This document shows, in pieces, positions 6,001-18,752 of a DNA stretch of 64,000 nucleotides. This DNA comes from Haliotis cracherodii (taxonomy: Eukaryota). The stretch spans positions 51,708,001 through 51,772,000 of the forward strand of contig NW_027266265.1 of NCBI RefSeq assembly GCF_022045235.1, read 5' to 3'. The first letter of the stretch is position 1. Each line of letters opens with the position of its first letter. The position numbers and the translations under genes are program-made. Under the pieces are notes generated by a model. The model had not been told where the DNA came from and made no database searches. It worked only from the letters and a program-made list of their open reading frames with translations.

Positions 6001-9000
6001 ATTATGTTTCTAGGTTTGTCAGCACTATACACGTGCTCGTGGGTTTCACCGAAGTGGTAAACGTCTGAGACCTGCATCAGTTCGGGCTTTCCTCCCACAT
6101 TAAGCTGACACACCGTGATATAACTGGAATAATGTTAAAAGCGGCGTTAAACCCAACTCACTCACTCATCACTCTATTGGGTTTTTCCAAAAATTAGTGA
6201 ACATTCTAAAATTTAAAAAAATGAAATAATGTTTCAGATGTATATAACTGTTCTAAATATATAGGCTTGACTCGGAAAGTAAATTAGCTCGTAATTGTGT
6301 TACTGAAATTAGCTCCTTTGTACGCATGCTGAAATAGCTTAATTGGGTATTTACACATGCTGTTCTTATAAATGTAAGTTTTTCATTTAATGCATGCGCT
6401 GCTGTACGCAAGTTAATTGAAAGTAATTGGGTTTTGAATATTTTAGGGGGATATTTTACGCAAATACGCTGCTTATCTGTAGCTCTGTATATGATACTCA
6501 TTGAACATTTTGAAAGTAGGTCACTGTGGCATTCTACCATCATAAGATTGTCCAGAGCTCCAGGTAAGCTTTTGGTGTTGTGGGTATTTTACCCATGCAT
6601 TTTAAAATCATTGGGTATCAGTAATTCTATCTGGGTATTCAAATTTCTGTTACCCACTAGTGGGTATCTAAGTTAAATATTTAACAACACTATTCATCTA
6701 GTCCCTGCAAACTGGTGTCGTGTATGTTCCAGAGCTTTAAAGGACTCAAAAATACCACGATACTTCCACAAGAAAATGTGATGGCAAATGATCATGATGT
6801 AACTGTCATGGTGGGGTTTGGCAAGGTTGACAGAATGCCCGTTTATAATTTCAAAATAAGTTGCTGATTTGCTAATCGAATACGCAGGGTTACTTCACAA
6901 TATTTTGATGATACGCACAAGTTTTATTTTTGTAGCGTATCTGTAATGTTCGTTGCATATTTGATACGCTTGGATTTTGTTTTACTGCGTATTTCTGCAT
7001 TTCTGATGCGTATTTTACTCAGATACACAGCTTATCTGGAGCTCTGTTGTCATCAAGTGTCACACATAAGAACTGAAGAACTTTTTAAGCACTAGAATTA
7101 ACCATCAGGCTTAAAACTATCTAGCATATTAGAGAACCATACTTCATGAATTACCTTCAATATGTGACCGTATCTTAATTACATTAGGTAATTCACAACC
7201 TTTCCATGTTGGCAGCCTGCCCAAAGAATAACACATAACAAGTTTCATTGGCCAGCTGTTGTCATACTATAGATATTCCATGAGTTATTGTACATACAAT
7301 TTTTTCGTCTAGTTTAACCTTGAGGATATACCTTGACATGATTGATCAATGAGTCAAAAAATAAGTCCCAGGGCTATAAAAGAGACATACTTGATATCAT
7401 ATCATTAACATGCCCATTGCATGATCAAACTCATGACAAATACATATATTCGATGACTGGGGCTGCGTAAATATCAGTAAACCTCCATCATAATATTTTA
7501 ATTTTAACATGTAAGTAGTATAGTACAGAACCCTAGTATTCGGAAGTGGTTCTGGGCATGTGCGAAGAGGGCATGCTGGGTTATGCGTGAGCATCCAAGT
7601 TGGCAGCACTTCTGGTTTCGAGAGGCATGCGCCTCCAAGATGGCGGTACGTCCAGTTCCTGCTACGTCCCCCACAGGAGGAAAGGTTACAGAAGGTGTTA
7701 AGATACATATAGTAGAATCAGGGACGACGTTGTCACCATTAGAGGAGTGGGTCGAATGGTTGACTCATGCACCATCAGAGTGGATTGAATCATTCACTCG
7801 TGCTGACAACAAGTTCAAGCCAGACCCAGAACACCACAAGACACCATGCTACAACTGTAGCTACTTTGGCTGTTGGCCGCCATGCAGCTACTACTGACTC
7901 CAACGGCCAAAGTAGCTAGGATGACGTTTCCGTTCCTGGTTCCATTCCCCTTCCCATTCCAGATCCAGCTTTTCAGGGCCACCAAACTCTCCCGAAAGAA
8001 CACTTTCATTATTGCTTTGCCAACAAACACAAAAAAAGAACCCTCCTCCTCCTCCCTTGTCCTCTCTCTGCTTGCCAACACCCTGATGTCCATGATAGCT
8101 TTACTTGCTTCAGTGGAGGATTTTACCCTCTTGGAGTCGCACGCCTCCCGGAACCGTACGTACCGCCATCTTGGATGCGCACACCTCTCGGAATCAGAAC
8201 TGCCGCCATCTTGGAGGTGCACGCATTACCCAGCATGCCCTCTTCGCGCAAGCGCAGAACCACTTCCGGATACTAGGGTTCTGTACTATACTACTCTTGT
8301 AACTTGCTATCATGAGGTATTAAAATTATTACTTATGTTGAATTGTCTAAATGATTTTTTATCATTGAACATGCATATTTAACTTTAGTTCAATTAACAT
8401 AAGGAAGAGAATATATGGATGTCAACTTCTTTATTATGAGGAACACAACGTTTCAGAGTATAAGCTTACTCCTTCATCAGGTGAACGATGATGAAGCAGT
8501 AAGCATATACTCCAAAACGTTGTGTTCCTCAAAATAAAGAAGTTGACATCCATATATTCTCTACCTTATGTGAATCACTTCTAAATGCCTTTCAAAGACC
8601 AGTTCAATTAACATTCAACAATTTCAGAAACACTAAACTTATCTGTATGTATTTACAGTCCGTTTGATTCCATCTGAGACCGATGAATTCTCACTAACTC
8701 AAAATCTAATAATTTAAAAAAAAACAAAATGTGCACAGCGACATGAATTGTACAGACCAACTCTGATGGTTTGTCTCATAATTTTTGACACCCGAATAAA
8801 AAATTGTTGAAACGATCATCATTTTGTTGACATTTTTCGCCATCCCATACCAGGGAGGACCAGTCGCTCATGCAACAGCCAGGTAATGAACAAGCATGTG
8901 CACCGTACATGGGGGTCATCTCAAAAGCCGTTTTGGGTGTTCAATCGGAGTCACTGTTGCAGGTTTCTGAAGCAGTGACAGTGCATTTGGAATCAGTGTT

Positions 9001-11588
9001 GCTGTTGTCCGAATCGCTATCGCCGCTGTCCGAGTCTACCCTGATGATCACTGGCTTGATTGTGGCATGGTCGAATCCACTATGATCTTAATGTCTCTCT
9101 ATTTCATTCTCAACTTTCTCAACACACTTTTGCCACGTTTCCTGCATCATGGTGTCTATTGATTGTTGAACCAGTTTCTGTACATCCGGCAGTTTGAATG
9201 TTGTTTTTTGCCTCGCAACATCCGATTTAATGATACCCCAAATTAGTTCTATTGGGTTTAAATCGCAATGTTATGGCAATCGCAAAACTGAATGGCCATG
9301 GTCTTTAAGATACTCGTCAACTTTAAAGACAGGTGTGGTTTTATAAGACTTTATAATATCATACAGAACAGGTTTCGAAGCTTTTTGTGGATACGGTATT
9401 GCTTTGTGTGTCAACCATTCTATCATATCGCCCTTCCTACTGTTAGACGTTGGGGCTTTTGTGTTAGGTACCTAAACGCCATGATATGGAGCATTGTCCA
9501 TGACAACCAGACTCTTGGGCGGCAATACCGGTACCAGTTGAGTATTAATCCATTCTAGGAATACCGCTCCGTTCATTTTGGTATGATAGTCTCGGTTGTC
9601 TTTAGATTTTGCCTTGAAGACTAGCGAACAGCTTGGTAGGAATCCCCGACTCTTGCAGCCAGCATGGAGCACAATAAGCCGCTCACCCTTGCCAAGTGGC
9701 AGTTTCCTGGCACAGAAATCAGAAGAGGAGCTAGGGAACCATTGTGTTCCTGTGGTATGGAAAGCGTTTACCCACGTTTTGTCCAAGTATACAGGCTCAT
9801 AACCCTCATAAGGTTTTTCACGTATTGTGCGTAGGAAATGGTTCCTTAGTCGAACAATATCAGACCTCTCGCATAATGCATGTCTATTTTCGGAGCCTAC
9901 TTTGTTTAAACGGAAACCAAATTGGTGTAGCAATTGCCATAACTGATATTTTGAAATGGTCAAAGAATGATTTGTCTCCATATATTTTTTAAGAGTACGG
10001 AGAGAGACACAGATATTTTGTTTATACAGAGTCTTAATGGCGTTTCTAACCATCTCTTGTTGAAATGAATCGATTTTAACACATCGCTTGGGTTTAGAGA
10101 TGGTCCCTTAAGGTGTGTCACTGCAGGTTGAATCAGTACACTTTTTTAACTTAGTTTTTAACTTCCCTTCTGTTATCCAACTGGACGTGCAGTTCGTAAA
10201 CGATTCTTTTTCAAAGCATATTGTGGTCTACCTCTTTCACATTCATTTTTAAAAAATTTATAGACAGTGCAAATATTTGACTTGGCGTCGAGTGATGTTC
10301 TCATTGTTTCAGGTATAGCAATCACGCATCTATGGTTTGCTCAGCAAGCCTTACGTCACTTTCGCACATGAAACTCGCCCACCTGGCTGTTCTGAGCGAC
10401 TGGTCCTCCCTGGTATGGGATAGTGAAAAATGTCGACAATATGATGATCGTTTGTTGAACAATTTTTTTATTCAGTTGTGCAAAATTTTGGTTTGGCTAC
10501 AATTATTAGATTTTGAGTTAGTGAGCAATTCATCAGTCTCAAATGGAATCAAACGGACTGTAGGTATGTATAGATTTTCATAAGACACATAAAACAAACT
10601 AAAATCATTTGTAATGACGGTTACATCTCATGTACATCTGTTTATGCTTACGCACAAATACTTTGTGATAGGTTCCTACCTGACAGCAGCTGTTGCAATA
10701 TGAAACGACATATTTTGACAAAATTACTGAAAGGCTATCATAACAGCATTTATAAGGCCAATTACATTGCTCATTGACATATTGATGTATAACTTGTCTC
10801 TTTAATATGTCAAAGCTATAGCTGTAACAGCTGGTTTATTTGCAGTATCGATTATTTTGTGTAATTAATGATAAAGTGAAGAGGAAAAGCAGAGATGTCT
10901 TTTCTGTTAGACTTGTTCATAGCATGTCATCGATCTCAACTGCGTAGATCGATGTTCATAATGTCAATCACTGGATTGGCTGGTCCAGACTTGATTATTT
11001 TACAGACCACCGTCATATAGATGGAATATTGCTGAGTGTGGCGTTAAACAACAAACAAACAAACAAAAACATAGCTGTGTTCTTGCCAGTGTTTGTAGAG
11101 TTACAAAGCTGATCTTTTTCGTGCCTCAAGGCTCAACTTTTCATGAACTTTTCATGCTTAAAACACCATTTAACCTTAAATGGGCCCCATCTGCTTCATA
11201 CACGTATTTCAGCATTCGTCTTCTAACACAATCAATGATGTACATAAATGTGGACATTATGAAACGTCTTTAAATCTAGAGGGTCAATACATCTTATTGC
11301 TCTAAATTTATTTGTTCACCAATTCAACTCAACACCCTTAATTTAAACATATGTGAACAGCACGACACATCCCCAAACGAGCCTCAATAAGTTTTGGACC
11401 ATAGTCACCTCTTCTAGGATGCGCCTGATGCCTTCCCTTGGTGCGTCATCGTAATTGGCGGGGTCCTCCGACAGCAGCTTCAACACCCGAATCTCATTAT
11501 TCGGGCATCGGGCCCAGACGTCAGTGAAAGTGCCCCCACGATCAATGGCAAATTGGAACAGTGACGACATTGATACTTCGTCAGCCAT
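52..11588 (-). CDS. OPLAH: 5-oxoprolinase (ATP-hydrolysing), 5' part; the gene continues beyond the left edge of the window
   Basis: Phase-consistent GT-AG exons: 11588-11409 ([23 protein letters not shown]...[11 protein letters not shown]), 5630-5439 ([41 protein letters not shown]), 4270-4145 ([14 protein letters not shown]), 3863-3757 ([13 protein letters not shown]), 2902-2787 ([20 protein letters not shown]), 131-52 (ACADAYLTP). These are hallmark hydantoinase/oxoprolinase motifs. Confidence 0.96.
226..730 (+). mobile_element. SINE family C copy interrupted by a MITE
   Basis: Collinear with 5892-6170 once 340-563 is removed. Confidence 0.85.
340..560. mobile_element. Tourist/PIF-Harbinger-like MITE nested in a SINE
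   Basis: Long TIRs (GGCTAAAA..TCTTGGTTCTCAGGCAC / GTGCCTGAGAACCAAGA..TTTTAGTC) with a TTA TSD at 337-339 and 561-563. It interrupts SINE family C at GATTA|TGTTTC. Confidence 0.8.
1186..1352. repeat. 85-bp tandem duplication
   Basis: ATGGTACCTTCTAATGAACCACC...TGACCTAGAGGTTGTGG at 1186 and 1271. Confidence 0.85.
1780..2595. repeat. Minisatellite, ~41-bp unit, about 19 copies
   Basis: Unit ATACTTTGTAGCWCACTATTCTCYGAGTATTSTAAACTATA. Confidence 0.95.
2600..2760. repeat. Minisatellite with 18/26-bp units
   Basis: TCTGTCTGGGTGTCTGGT(TCTCTGGT) repeats. Confidence 0.95.
3225..3756. repeat. Compound (ACTC)n / CCAACC low-complexity array
   Basis: About 530 bp of ACTC runs punctuated by CCAACC. It abuts an OPLAH exon donor. 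Confidence 0.95.
4582..5430 (+). mobile_element. Helentron-associated non-autonomous element (HINE/pearl-like) with an internal ~169-bp tandem array
   Basis: About 3.9 units, with CCTAAGTCCATC anchors at 4706, 4876, 5044 and 5213. These are followed by a (GACG)n tract and the terminal hairpin ATCCCCGCCAACTTTGTTGGGCGGGGGATAA. The 5' boundary is approximate. Confidence 0.7.
5767..6487. mobile_element. Non-autonomous DNA element with CAGAGCTCCAGATAA termini, carrying a SINE C insertion
   Basis: Termini CAGAGCTCCAGATAA...CTTATCTGTAGCTCTG. A related inverted fragment lies at about 4325-4480. Confidence 0.6.
5892..6170 (+). mobile_element. SINE family C (tRNA-derived head with long A-B box spacing, ~280 bp), representative copy
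   Basis: TGGCCCAGTCGTCTAAGGCG...GGGTTCGAATCCC, (ACTC)n tail, TSD ACTCTATTGGG. A partial copy lies at 30635-30850(-). Confidence 0.88.
6553..7046. mobile_element. Non-autonomous DNA element of the same TIR family
   Basis: CAGAGCTCCAGGTAAGC...GCTTATCTGGAGCTCTG flanked by a TTGTC direct repeat (5 bp). Confidence 0.65.
7514..8295. mobile_element. Non-autonomous Polinton/Maverick-like element (782 bp)
   Basis: Termini AGTAGTATAGTACAGAACCCTAGTA...TACTAGGGTTCTGTACTATACTACT, imperfect TIRs of about 150 bp, and 6-bp flanks CATGTA / CTTGTA. Confidence 0.75.
8401..8600. mobile_element. Penelope-like (PLE) terminal fragment in an inverted arrangement, with a hammerhead-like core
   Basis: 14-bp TSD AGTTCAATTAACAT (8387-8400 and 8601-8614). 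Inverted arms of about 80 bp. The minus strand reads CTGATGA-AGGAGTAAGCTTATACTCT-GAAACGTTG...AATAAA. Confidence 0.7.
8656..10560 (-). mobile_element. IS630-Tc1-mariner DNA transposon with DD82E spacing (Sailor-type), decayed
   Basis: Imperfect TIRs of about 200 bp beginning CAGTCCGTTTGATTCCAT, flanked by TA on both sides (8654-55 and 10561-62), with an internal transposase remnant. Confidence 0.9.
8941..10304 (-). pseudogene. DDE (DDE_3-like) transposase pseudogene
   Basis: Motifs [33 protein letters not shown] and [14 protein letters not shown]. In-frame stops at 9474-9472, 9273-9271 and about 9090, and the 5' part is disrupted. Confidence 0.88.
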
Positions 11589-12399: not shown

Positions 12400-15365
12400 G
12401 CACTGGTATGGTTCGCACTACATTCATGCACTGGTAATGTTCGCACAACATTCAGGCACTGGTAAGGTTCGCACAACATTCAGGCACTAGTAAGGTTCGC
12501 ACAACATTCATGCACTGGTAAAGTTCGCACAACATTCATGCACTAGTAAGGTTTGCACAACATTCAGGCACTGGTAAGGTTCGCTCAACATTCAGGCACT
12601 AGTAAGGTTCGCACAACATTCATGCACTGGTATGGTTTCGCACAACATTCATGCATTGGTATGGTTCGCACATCATTCATGCACTGGAAAGGTTCGCACA
12701 ACATTCATGCAGGCACTAGTAAGGTTCGCACAACATTCATGCACTAGTAAGGTTTGCACAACATTCAGGCACTGGTAAGGTTCGCTCAACATTCAGGCAC
12801 TAGTAAGGTTCGCACAACATTCATGCACTGGTATGGTTTCGCACAACATTCACGCACTGGTAAGGTTCGCACAACATTCATGCACTGGTAAGGTTCGCAC
12901 AACATTCATGCAGGCACTGGTAAGGTTCGCACAACATTCATGCACTGGTATGGTTTCGCACAACATTCACGCACTGGTAAGGTTCGCACAACATTCATGC
13001 ACTGGTAAGGTTCGCACAACATTCATGCACTGGTAAGGTTCGCACAACATTCATGCACTGGTAAGGTTCGCACAACATTCATGCACTAGTAAGGTTCGCA
13101 CAACATTCAGGCACTGGTACCTAGGTTCGCACAACATTCAGGCACTGGTAAGGTTCGCACAACATTCATGCACTGGTATGGTTCGCACAACATTCATGCA
13201 CTGGTAAAGTTCGCACAACATTCATGCACTGGTGAAGTTCGCACAACATTCAGACTAGTAAGGTTCGCACAACATTCATGCACTAGTAAGGTTCGCACAA
13301 CATTCATGCAGGCACTGGTAAGGTTCGCACAACTTTCAGGCACTGGTAAGGTTCGCACAACATTCATGCACTAGTAATGTTTGCACAACATTCATGCACT
13401 GGTAAGGTTCACTCAACATTCATGCACTGATAAGGTGCGCACAACATTCATGCACTAGTAAGGTTCGCACAACATTCATGCACTGGTAAGGTTCGCACAA
13501 CATTCATGCACTAGTAAGGTTCGCTCAACATTCAGGCACTGGTAGCTAGGTTCGCACAACATTCAGGCACAAGTAAGGTTCGCACAACATTCATGCACTG
13601 GTAAGGTTTGCACAACATTCATGCACTAGTAAGGTTCGCACAACATTCAGGCACTGGTACCTAGGTTCGCACAACATTCAGGCACTGGTAAGGTTCGCAC
13701 AACATTCATGCACTGGTATGGTTCGCACAACATTCATGCACTGGTAAAGTTCGCACAACATTCATGCACTGGTGAAGTTCGCACAACATTCAGACTAGTA
13801 AGGTTCGCACAACATTCATGCACTAGTAAGGTTCGCACAACATTCATGCAGGCACTGGTAAGGTTCGCACAACTTTCAGGCACTGGTAAGGTTCGCACAA
13901 CATTCATGCACTAGTAATGTTTGCACAACATTCATGCACTGGTAAGGTTCACTCAACATTCATGCACTGATAAGGTGCGCACAACATTCATGCACTAGTA
14001 AGGTTCGCACAACATTCATGCACTGGTAAGGTTCGCACAACATTCATGCACTAGTAAGGTTCGCTCAACATTCAGGCACTGGTAGCTAGGTTCGCACAAC
14101 ATTCATGCAGGCACAAGTAAGGTTCGCACAACATTCATGCACTGGTAAGGTTTGCACAACATTCACACACTGGTAGATAGGTTCACACAACATTCAGGCG
14201 CTGGTAGCTAGGTTCGCACAATATTCAGGCGCTGGTAAGATTCGCACAACATTCATGCACTGGTATGGTTCACACAACATTCATGCACTGGTATGGTTCG
14301 CACAACATTCATGCACTGGTAAGGTTCACACAACATTCATGCACTGGTATGGTTCGCACAAAATTCATGCACTGGTATGGTTCGCACAACATTCATGCAC
14401 TGGTAAGGTTCGCACAACATTCATGCACTGGTATGGTTCGCACAACATTCATGCACTGGTAAGGGTTCGCACAACATTCAGGCACTGGTAAGGGTTCGCA
14501 CAACATTCAGGCACTGGTAAGGTTCGCACAACATTCATGCACTGGTAAGGTTCGCACAACATTCATGCATTGGTATGGTTCGCACAACATTCATGCACTG
14601 GAAAGGTTCGCACAACATTCATGCAGGCACTAGTAAGGTTCGCACAACATTCATGCACTGGTAAGGTTCGCTCAACATTCAGGCACAGGTAGCTAGGTTC
14701 GCACAACATTCATGCACTGGTAAGGTTCGCACAACATTCATGCACTGGTAAGGTTCGCACAACATTCATGCACTGGTAAGGTTCGCACAACATTCATGCA
14801 TTCGTAATGTTCGCACAACATTCATGCACTAGTAAGGTTCGCACAACATTCATGCACTGGTATGGTTCGCACAACATTCATGCACTGGTAATGTTCACAC
14901 AACATTCATGCACTGGTATGGTTCGCACAATATTCATGCACTGGTAAGGGTTCGCACAACATTCATGCACTGGTAAGGTTCGCACAACATTCATGCACTG
15001 GTAAAGTTCGCACAACATTCAGACTAGTAAGGTTCGCACAACATTCATGCACTGGTAAGGTTCGCTCAACATTCAGGCACTAGTAAGGTTCGCACAACAT
15101 TCATGCACTGGTAAGGTTCGCACAACATTCATGCACTGGTAAGGTTCGCTCAACATTCAGACACTGGTAGCTAGGTTCGCACAACATTCATGCACTAGTA
15201 AGGTTCGCACAACATTCATGCACTTGTAAGGTTCGCACAACATTCATGCACTAGTAAGGTTCGCACAACATTCATACACTGGTAAGGTTCGCACAACATT
15301 CAGGCACTGGTAGCTAGGTCCGCACAACATTCAGACACTAGTAAGGTTCGCACAACATTTATACA
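12400..15365. repeat. 28-bp satellite, about 105 copies, with a 540-bp higher-order duplication
   Basis: Unit GCACTGGTAAGGTTCGCACAACATTCAT. 13081-13565 is repeated exactly at 13621-14105. Confidence 0.97.
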
Positions 15366-15942
15366 CGGCAGGGCTCACTTCATTGTTTGACTTTAACAGA
15401 CATGTGTCAGTACCGCGACACATTACCTCACGAGAGATGGGGTATACAGTGTATATACAATACACAGTACAAGCCTGTGAAGTACTGACTGTGACTTAGA
15501 ATTGGTTTAATTTTCAACGCCACACTCAGACATGTTCGTGCATAACATAACCATACAACCGAGTCTAGACCAGGCAGTCTTGGGACTTAATGCGCTTAAT
15601 TATGTTGTCTGAAGAGATAACTTTGACGATAGTGTATGTTCTGACATGTTTAATTCATTTTAATAAATATATTTTACATCATATATAATATATACATTAA
15701 TATGTTTAGCATTAAGGGGTATAACATATCAATAAATGTATTGTACCCAAGCCATGCATTCATAAGGCTGCGATAATATAGCACATGCCGCGCCATGCAG
15801 TATGCATGGTGTTAACGTAAGTATGTCGTGTGTTATTTAGAGAATATCCTGCGAGCGAGGAAATACTGATTGTCTGTACCCAGTGAATTATTTTTTTTTG
15901 TATGTTCAGTTACAACAGCACAGTAACATACACCACAGGAAC

Positions 15943-16039
15943 ATGTAACTAATAATAATAACAAACAAACTCACAAACGAGGCCGAACGTCTTCGGCCTC
16001 GTCTACGAGTTTGTTTGTTGTTATAATCATTAGTTACAC
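15943..16039. repeat. ~95-bp imperfect palindrome
   Basis: TGTAACTAAT..ACAAACAAACTC..ACGAGGCCGAA-CGTC-TTCGGCCTCGT..GAGTTTGTTTGT..ATTAGTTACA. Confidence 0.8.
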
Positions 16040-16066
16040 CAGAGACCATATAATAGATGGCCTCTG
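16040..16066. mobile_element. 27-bp palindromic micro-element, copy 1
   Basis: CAGAGACCATATAATAGATGGCCTCTG between GTTACAC direct repeats (16033-39 and 16067-73). Confidence 0.75.
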
Positions 16067-16215
16067 GTTACACGTTTCTGTGCATACACACTCCGGCGCA
16101 ACGATGACTTAGCATTGAAGCACGCCAACAAGCTTATTTGCATATCACGTGATCGGACTTTCCTCGTTTGTAAACAAATGCGCGTATTCTGAAATTAGAG
16201 TAGACTGATTAAAAG

Positions 16216-16242
16216 CAGAGACCATCTATTATATGGTCTCTG
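16216..16242. mobile_element. 27-bp palindromic micro-element, copy 2 (opposite orientation)
   Basis: CAGAGACCATCTATTATATGGTCTCTG between TTAAAAG direct repeats (16209-15 and 16243-49). Confidence 0.75.
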
Positions 16243-16751
16243 TTAAAAGCAAGCCTTTCAGTGCATTCTACATATTTTTTGCATAATTATATAGATATGC
16301 TGAGTACTTCGTCTGCAACAGTGAGAAGCACAACAGTATATCTTTACAAATGAAAGTGACCGTATCGCTAGCTCGTCATAGGGGTTCGATTATAGCGCGT
16401 GCCCATGTAAACAAAGGATACATACGTAAATGGAAATTGTTTATCACGCGTTAGGATATATCCTTATTGGATCTTAATCATATTCTTTAAGAGGTAGGTG
16501 TAGAGTTTCTCAAATTGATATGGATTACAGAAAATATGTAATTTGTTGAATGGACTGTGTAAGATGTGACGAATCGTTTGGTAATTGATAAATATAGCCA
16601 TTTGATTTTTTAAAATTAAATCATGGATTTGTCGCAGTGCTCGGCTTGAAGGATAGGGTTAGGCGCGTAAGTAATTGAAGCTCCTTTACAATCATTGTCC
16701 TAGTAGGGGAGGTCACTCTTAAAGTAAGTGCTAGCACATGTTCATAACAAC

Positions 16752-18752
16752 ATGGCGGGCTTAGAACTTCTGTCTGATCAGGGCTTTCGAATTGATGGGC
16801 GTAGACCGCATGAGTTACGAAAGATCCAATGTCGGCTAGGGGTTTTCAAGCAAGCAGATGGTTCAGCGTATATTGAGCAGGGAAATACGAAGGTTTTAGC
16901 AACAGTATACGGCCCACACGAGGTAACCGGCTAACTGGCACTTCAGGAACAAGAGACACTTAAATCCCGATGTGCTACTTTCCAATTGCAAAGCCAGGAA
17001 AGACTTCCGCCCGTATCCCCCCTCCAAAATTTGTATATGTATGCATAGCCGCCCAATCGTTTTAGCTAGGCTTATATATATATTTGAGGGGGGATTCGGG
17101 TGTAAGTCGTACCAACAGGTCTTGGAGGATTGCATACCTAGACATTTGCTAGACACAACAATCTCACACATGACACCCCTCTCCCACGGCCCTGCATTTA
17201 GTGCTCCAAGGAATAAGTTATTCTACTTTCAAACATGATATACGAGTTACATTTAGTAAGCACACACAGAATTATAAACTGACTCAATGTTATCACATTT
17301 TCTTAATCATGAATGTTAAGTAAAATTTATGTTTGTGTTAACATGATAAACTCCATATTGTGACATATTTCTTTCTTTATTTTATTTTCTATAGCATAAA
17401 TCTGTAAACGATAACAATTTTAAGGTGTGGCCTTACATAAGATGATGGTGTATAACGACAAACAAAACAAACTTTGTTCTATTTCAGATTAGAGGCAGTA
17501 GAGGAAGAGCCTTACATGACAAGGTTCTGGTGAACTGTCAGTACAGCATGGCCACCTTCAGCACCGGGGAGAGGAAGACACGCCCCAGGGGTGACCGCAA
17601 GTCCCAAGAGATGACCATGCACCTCCGACAGACCTTTGATGCAGCTATTATGACCAGCCTCTATCCTCGATCACAGATTGATATTTTCGTGGAGGTAAGA
17701 CAACCATATTCCTTTGTTTACGAATTAGAGTGACCAGAGCCAAATGTGCAATCTAATAATTCATAATGGAAAAGTTTTCATGTGTCATTTACAAGCAGAA
17801 CAAGCCAAGAAATTAAGGTAAATAAAAATTGAAACAATAAAATACACAATGATCTATTACAATATAGTTAGTATATACAGTTGGTCTGCGGCCTCCCCTT
17901 CAGACGGCCACCTCGAGTCAGGTCAACATTGACCTCATCAAGAATAACTACCATATTCGACGTAATAAGCGCTGAGGGGGCTCTCAAGATTAGAAATAGG
18001 GGGCTCTTATTAGAATATTACTTTGGTGAAAAAAAACAGAGTTGAAAGATTAATTTTGTGGTTTATGCTGACAGCCTGAAATGTTTATGTACGACAGATA
18101 TTATTTTCCAGAATTTGATTGCCCATAATTAAGGGTGCATATAGCACATGAGTGCATATTATACGCGAAAAAATAAGTCTTGTGAACATTGATCAATCGG
18201 AAGGGGTGCCAATTGGGATTGTTCACTAGCCAATATATTAGCAAATATCGTGGGCCGTGGGCGCTTATTAGAGCAGGGCGCTTATTACGTCAAATACGGT
18301 ATTTGTATAATGTATTTTTCAATTGATAATTCCAACCTTCTGTTGAGGAATTAAATAAGAGTCTTGTAAAAATTGGCTCTTGGCAGGTTCTTCAGTCCGA
18401 CGGCGGCAACTACTGCGCTAGTGTGAACGCCTCAACGCTTGCGCTCATAGATGCTGGCATTCCCATGAAGGACTATGTGTGTGCATGCTCTGCAGGCTTC
18501 GTGAACGATTCCCCGCTAGTCGACATCAGCTACCTGGAGGAGTCATCGGGTGGGCCGGAGCTGATTGTCGCCACCTTGCCTCAGTCAGAGCAGATTGTGT
18601 TTCTAGAGATGAACTCCCGGCTTCACGAGGACAACCTCAACAAGGTCCTAGACCAGGCCATGAAGGGTTGTAAGGACATCTACCAGGTGCTCAATACAGC
18701 TGTCCGAGAACACGTCAGTAGCACGGTCACATCACTCGGCTGGGAGACTTGA
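16752..18752 (+). CDS. EXOSC4: Exosome complex component RRP41 (RNase PH fold), 247 aa, 3 exons
   Basis: Exons 16752-16922 (MAGLELLSDQGFRIDGRRPHELR...GSAYIEQGNTKVLATVYGPHE), 17488-17694 (VNCQYSMATFSTGERK...YPRSQIDIFVE) and 18387-18752 (VLQSDGGNYCASVNASTLALIDAGIPMKDYV...TGA). Both introns are phase-0 GT-AG. Confidence 0.97.
17002..17108. mobile_element. Small MITE with GACTTCCGCCCGTATCCCC TIR (EXOSC4 intron 1)
   Basis: Imperfect inverted termini of about 26 bp. A related copy lies at 48961-49182. Confidence 0.6.
17951..18299. mobile_element. Tc1/mariner (pogo-like) MITE
   Basis: TA|CCATATTCGACGTAATAAGCGC...GCGCTTATTACGTCAAATACGG|TA. Confidence 0.85.

Follow-up and report, generated by a model that had tools for sequence, protein, structure and literature searches.

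The window (the whole 64-kb stretch of DNA that was analyzed) holds two copies of a 27-bp unit upstream of an RNase PH-family gene, which raises the question of whether so short a unit was itself mobile or is what a longer transposon left behind. The first copy occupies 16040–16066 and the second, as its reverse complement, 16216–16242; they differ by one base (16061, T to C in copy 1). The original prediction held that each unit has its own 7-bp target-site duplication, and direct reading of the sequence bore this out. On the forward strand, GTTACAC lies at 16033–16039 and again at 16067–16073, and TTAAAAG at 16209–16215 and 16243–16249; both duplications stop at 7 bp, with no extension to 8 bp. 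Dinucleotide shuffling gave no such units by chance (0 matches in 100 shuffles), and when the 64-kb window was scanned for any 10-bp inverted ends flanked by a perfect 7-bp duplication, these two units alone came back.

Each unit had been described as a 10-bp terminal inverted repeat (TIR) plus a 7-bp spacer. This anatomy did not hold, because the spacer is bases 11–17 of the TIR of a longer parent, which is 30 bp in length. As read from the sequence, each unit is an 18-nt stub plus a 10-nt stub with one A in common. The 18-nt stub of scar 1 (16040–16057, forward strand) corresponds to bases 1–18 of the parent TIR, where stubs are capped, and is identical to the ends of the long elements L033–L045 and L102. 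The 10-nt stub of the opposite TIR (16057–16066, reverse strand) shares with it the A at 16057, a 1-nt microhomology, and carries the single substitution at 16061. Scar 2 is the other way round, with the 10-nt stub at 16216–16225 (forward strand) and the 18-nt stub at 16225–16242 (reverse strand), base 16225 being common to both. Our main reading, to which we assign a probability of roughly 0.92, is that the 27-mers are fused TIR stubs of a long P-superfamily transposon, that is, scars of its excision. The window scars themselves would be inert.

A P-superfamily transposase had been predicted as the source, and the search for long elements with the same termini found both the elements and the enzyme. 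Eleven long elements on C1 share the TIR (349–2,776 bp), nine of them with a perfect 7-bp duplication. A further element, L102, is 8,167 bp long, has the same TIR and is flanked by the 7-bp duplication CATAGAC. In its 881-aa frame, all three core domains of the P transposase are recognized (PF21787, 1.2e-20; PF21788, 7.8e-17; PF21789, 3.5e-05), and its sole match in the PDB is the Drosophila P transposase (6P5A, E = 1.3e-14). In the alignment of L102 with 6P5A, the catalytic residues D303 and E531 are identical, as are all eight GTP-site residues (K385, K400, V401, S409, F443, D444, N447, and D528), the residues being those listed in PMC7776569. The first catalytic aspartate, D230, falls beyond the aligned 6P5A stretches, in a region within the PF21787 match. 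A THAP domain was not matched in the main frame or in eight short frames of L102, which may be decayed; the element has one TIR mismatch and a nested scar. Both parent ends have a common motif, starting 45 and 48 bases inward, which we infer to be a transposase binding site. Judged by its core domains, TIR, and 7-bp duplication, the parent is assigned to the P superfamily; a domain search of the genome gave 16 matches to the P-type RNase H domain, one of them in L102. One candidate was discarded: two TIR matches 11 kb apart on C1, taken as one long element, are a scar and an unrelated stub (L034 and L035).

Several of these P elements have a second gene, which faces the transposase (L102:6522–7640 and 8996–9409, reverse strand); similar frames occur in L098–L101, L104, L106, and L107. 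It consists of a C2H2 zinc-finger exon and a frame of 330–370 aa, free of Pfam matches, that is approximately 31–56% identical between families. For the 373-aa frame of this gene, Pfam likewise gave nothing, and the Atlas matches, which scored below 0.9, were set aside. Divergent P-type RNase H frames also lie beside PIF1 helicase frames at L108 (C18:7001500–7011499) and L109 (C8:23972500–23982499), the latter with a PHD finger as well. Element ends were not found in either of these 10-kb segments, and the two are possibly helicase-bearing P elements.

Across the whole genome (G000, 1.18 Gb), the exact 27-mer matched 32 times (control 0). As predicted, the copies have flanking duplications, with a 7-bp duplication at 31 of the 32 (26 perfect, 5 with one mismatch) and 8 bp at the remaining copy; the duplications are true ones, and the flanks differ from copy to copy. 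The target leans toward GTnnnAC (T2 and A6, 0.78; G1 and C7, 0.42; 73 sites, symmetrised), which GTTACAC in the window fits. When the spacer was relaxed, the genome returned 1,115 short end-fusions (control 0); over a thousand scars similar to those of the window are present. In a sample of 50 consecutive fusion sites, which also takes in sister families (their ends differ slightly, and their stubs come out short when scored against this TIR), lengths range from 20 to 45 bp and there are 38 distinct sequences; a 7-bp duplication at 0–1 mismatch flanks 45 of the 50, and the 27-bp form of the window accounts for 3. The scars consist only of parent TIR stubs between target duplications, and their junctions are mixed (microhomology, blunt, and insertion).

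Stub length has an upper limit. Among the short fusions, counted as strand matches, 25 stubs end at TIR base 17, against 350 that extend to base 18 and 11 that go on to base 19. Twenty of the 100 stubs in the 50-site sample are 18 nt long, one is 17 nt, and none is longer; at 20 further C1 sites the stubs measure 16–18 nt, except for one long-element end with G19. Only 128 of the 1,165 exact 16-nt ends continue into an element, so most genomic ends are stubs. The cut is probably an 18-nt stagger, one base longer than that of the fruit fly, a figure read from repair products that one-base trimming or addition could shift. A parent with T at base 19, for which the cut would be 19 nt, was considered, and none was seen; all long elements inspected have G19. 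The few fusions that retain parent sequence past base 18 are as incomplete repair from the sister would give. There are also lone stubs with no partner nearby (L048, L050, L230, L231, L237, and L242), as expected if repair deleted one flank.

These features can be arranged as a sequence of events. Insertion of what would have been a 2–8-kb family member duplicated 7 bp of target, a step that empty alleles show for copy 2. To judge by the stub cap and by Drosophila P, the transposase would have cut one strand flush and the other 18 nt inside, so that the chromosome would carry two 3′ overhangs of 18 nt, identical to each other; the 18-nt stub of scar 1 would be such an overhang, left in the donor site. 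End joining, probably of the polymerase-theta type, would then have fused the overhangs. When two 18-nt overhangs meet, the terminal A pairs only with T10, T12, or T15, which yields products of 27, 29, or 32 bp; with ends of 17 or 19 nt, the expected lengths would differ. Of the registers open to two 18-nt overhangs, the 27-bp one pairs best, at 6 of 9 bases, so an identical 27-mer would be expected to recur independently. By eye, the first 100 of the 350 base-18 rows include 26 32-mers, 2 29-mers, and five blunt 18+18 sites, and 17+17 joins are absent from all 25 rows of stubs stopping at 17. The register model was built after the base-18 fusions had been seen and is a fit, not a blind prediction.

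The original prediction took the 27-mer for a minimal non-autonomous element moved by P transposase. In its favor, 32 nearly identical copies are found in the genome, flanked by duplications of their own, copy 2 is polymorphic for its presence, and both window copies are of one form. MITEs are short, with inverted ends, a target duplication, and many copies; the members of a family are uniform and retain the sequences required for movement. The 27-mer has the inverted ends and the target duplication. Uniformity of size and sequence fails: the fusions are heterogeneous (38 forms in 50 sites, 20–45 bp) and have their cap at a single TIR position. As one of those forms, the 27-mer stops at base 18, keeps 18 and 10 of the 30 TIR bases, and is without the subterminal motif that the parent has at 45 and 48 bases, and its length is the one that the repair register predicts. 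Staggered cuts of 18 nt at both ends would leave it zero duplex overlap, so that it could not be excised by such cuts. The sites of the Drosophila P transposase fall inside the 31-bp TIRs (PMC7776569). The insertion of a TIR-only 27-bp unit therefore found no support, and we regard it as very improbable.

We give just as little credence to a second explanation, in which the fusions arose independently of transposase, by deletion between inverted repeats (hairpin collapse or slippage) or by abortive gap repair that involved no long overhang. Elements flanked by TIRs are able to fold back, there are internally deleted copies (L038, 349 bp), and more than 18 bases remain in a few fusions. However, the TIR is 30 bp long and stub counts fall 32-fold from base 18 to base 19 (350 versus 11), an edge that random deletion does not give, and a second family has an edge of its own. 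The preferred reading remains excision of a long P element, and within it there is a variant for the pair in the window. Both scars are of one 27-bp form (3/50 in the sample), which independent repair explains only modestly, and scar 2 might have been repaired by copying scar 1, 143 bases away. One and the same rare form is found at two places in 210 bp. Copy 1, with its one substitution, seems the older, being present in 5 runs whereas copy 2 is absent from 6, and templated copies of a stub plus target site are found elsewhere (L032 and L220). However, the substitution in copy 1 is missing from copy 2, and three other close scar pairs differ in form. We consider this variant unlikely and give it a small share of the best explanation.

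The search for empty-site alleles that had been suggested succeeded for copy 2. In 6 of 6 same-species runs, from two studies, position 16208 is joined to 16243. The 34 bases skipped equal the 27-mer plus one duplication, and TTAAAAG is present in these other individuals as a single copy, the empty site. Copy 1 is present in bridging contigs of five of the six runs; in the sixth, there was none among the contigs listed. These contigs record allele presence, not frequency, and the comparison is one within the species, as no contig of the other-species runs X7 and X8 spans this locus. Because copy 2 is absent from runs that carry copy 1, the two are separate events, in agreement with the independence claimed for them, and of the two window scars copy 2 arose later. 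A single ~200-bp element with two fixed ends was ruled out, since the duplications differ and copy 2 is missing where copy 1 is present. Among the alleles listed for the same-species runs, the scar sites held a scar or an empty site only, and no long-element allele.

A second P family, family B, is 7.3 kb long and has a different TIR, a 7-bp duplication, and an 864-aa frame. Its four 7.3-kb copies (L098–L101) are 99.2–99.9% identical; in all of them the 864-aa frame is open and a separate 7-bp duplication flanks the element, which suggests that the family was probably active recently. Scars of family B were predicted beforehand, and 281 fusions were found (control 2). Thirty-four of 39 sites have a duplication at 0–1 mismatch, and the stubs peak at 16–17. 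Genome-wide, 50 matches stop at base 17, including seven blunt 17+17 sites. The 28 with T at 18 are mostly assignable to the opposite stub, with one clear 18+17 site and no 18+18. Because half of these rows (14 of 28, a 32-mer) also fit an 18-nt end, a difference in stagger between families, 17 nt in family B versus 18 nt in the 8.2-kb family, is probable, not proven.

Scars of different families may also lie near one another. Two of 45 family-B scars are less than 2 kb from a listed family-A end (0.18 expected, p = 0.015), a count to be read with the facts that the pairs were noticed first, four distances were tried, and the family-A list is incomplete. Nothing was seen at 10–100 kb, and the short-range clustering of family-A and family-B scars is only suggestive. 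A sister family with the TIR variant ATACCGA has 347 exact ends. All 29 sites examined (L198–L227) hold scars or one-sided deletions only, with a cap that fits 17 or 18; no long parent was found at these 29 sites, and the parent may be extinct.

Some scars are amplified in tandem arrays, with nine copies at a 71-bp period at C6:33567302 (L173) and further arrays at C5:37206510 and C25:1184086 (spacings of ~47 bp and ~41 bp). Others sit inside other mobile elements (L102:8507–8541; also L103 and L111; L082, L160, and L170). One scar lies within the parent P element, and another, 37 bp long, turns up more than once between nearly identical flanks.

The first coding exon of the neighboring gene (16752–16922, forward strand) starts with the ATG at 16752 and matches the RNase PH family (PF01138, E = 7e-13); from the two 27-bp units down to this ATG the distances are 503 and 679 bases. 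The domain match is consistent with EXOSC4, the name given in the original prediction. Promoter proximity had been cited there among the signs of a P-type transposase. A preference for promoters was unsupported: CpG observed/expected, used as a proxy, is flat near scars (0.68–0.81) versus the window (0.71). Upstream of the gene, the DNA is pieced together from other repeats (window 15944–16038, 16102–16208, and 16247–16577). It includes a fold-back hairpin, one end of which overlaps the target of scar 1, segments of high read depth, and a 335-bp match to L156. Farther upstream, at 14500–15370, lies a 28-bp minisatellite of ~30 copies.

If the excision model is correct, an apparent record-small transposon becomes a readout of transposase chemistry. 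We lean, with some confidence, toward a broader proposal: that the geometry of the P cut is readable from genomic scars, that the long stagger is conserved in a distant animal and tunable (18 versus 17 nt in the same genome), that a two-gene lineage exists, maybe without THAP, and that scars, more numerous and longer-lived than their parents, are a fossil record of germline end joining. Scar lengths would then give the stagger for any family without protein purification, and structural studies would have an obvious pair to compare in two families that differ by one base. In a non-model animal, the scars offer a sample of how germline breaks are repaired, and they reveal families of which no parent is seen. 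They are also a warning that footprints may be filed wrongly as tiny MITEs when repeats are annotated. None of the open-literature papers listed in our searches reports, by title or abstract, natural genome-wide P footprints or an 18-nt cut.

Zebrafish Pdre2/THAP9 is likewise a P-type transposase outside insects with internally deleted copies, but it has a 13-bp TIR and an 8-bp duplication (PMC10983969). Galileo and 1360/Hoppel share the 7-bp duplication (PMC2775673; PMC3698922), a likeness that rests on the features compared and not on a tree. The Galileo target consensus, GTAGTAC, resembles the GTnnnAC lean seen here, whereas its TIRs are long and internally repetitive (PMC2775673), in contrast to 30 bp.

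The closest parallel is Drosophila P, whose enzyme is the only one for which the papers cited here measure the long staggered cut (PMC2895639; PMC7776569). PMC7776569 describes the cut, of ~17 nt, as a feature of P elements alone and says that the mechanism of end cleavage is unknown. Stubs are capped at 17 there and at 18 here, and the duplication is 8 bp there and 7 bp here. The Drosophila products came from laboratory crosses, whereas ours are natural genome scars, and the abalone element has a second gene on the opposite strand and no THAP domain detected in the scanned frames. Common to both elements are a TIR of ~30 bp, an internal motif that lies at unequal distances from the two ends, and an RNase H core with a GTP-binding insertion (PMC7776569). 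After excision of Drosophila P, the donor site is left with 3′ overhangs of 17 nt, and their fusion by end joining gives microhomology, blunt, and insertion junctions of 17-nt stubs (PMC2895639, Tables 2–3). The same junction classes occur in both systems, and in both the fused TIR stubs lie between target duplications and never extend beyond the cut overhang (PMC2895639). The scar is thus a known product type, found here in nature and at large scale.
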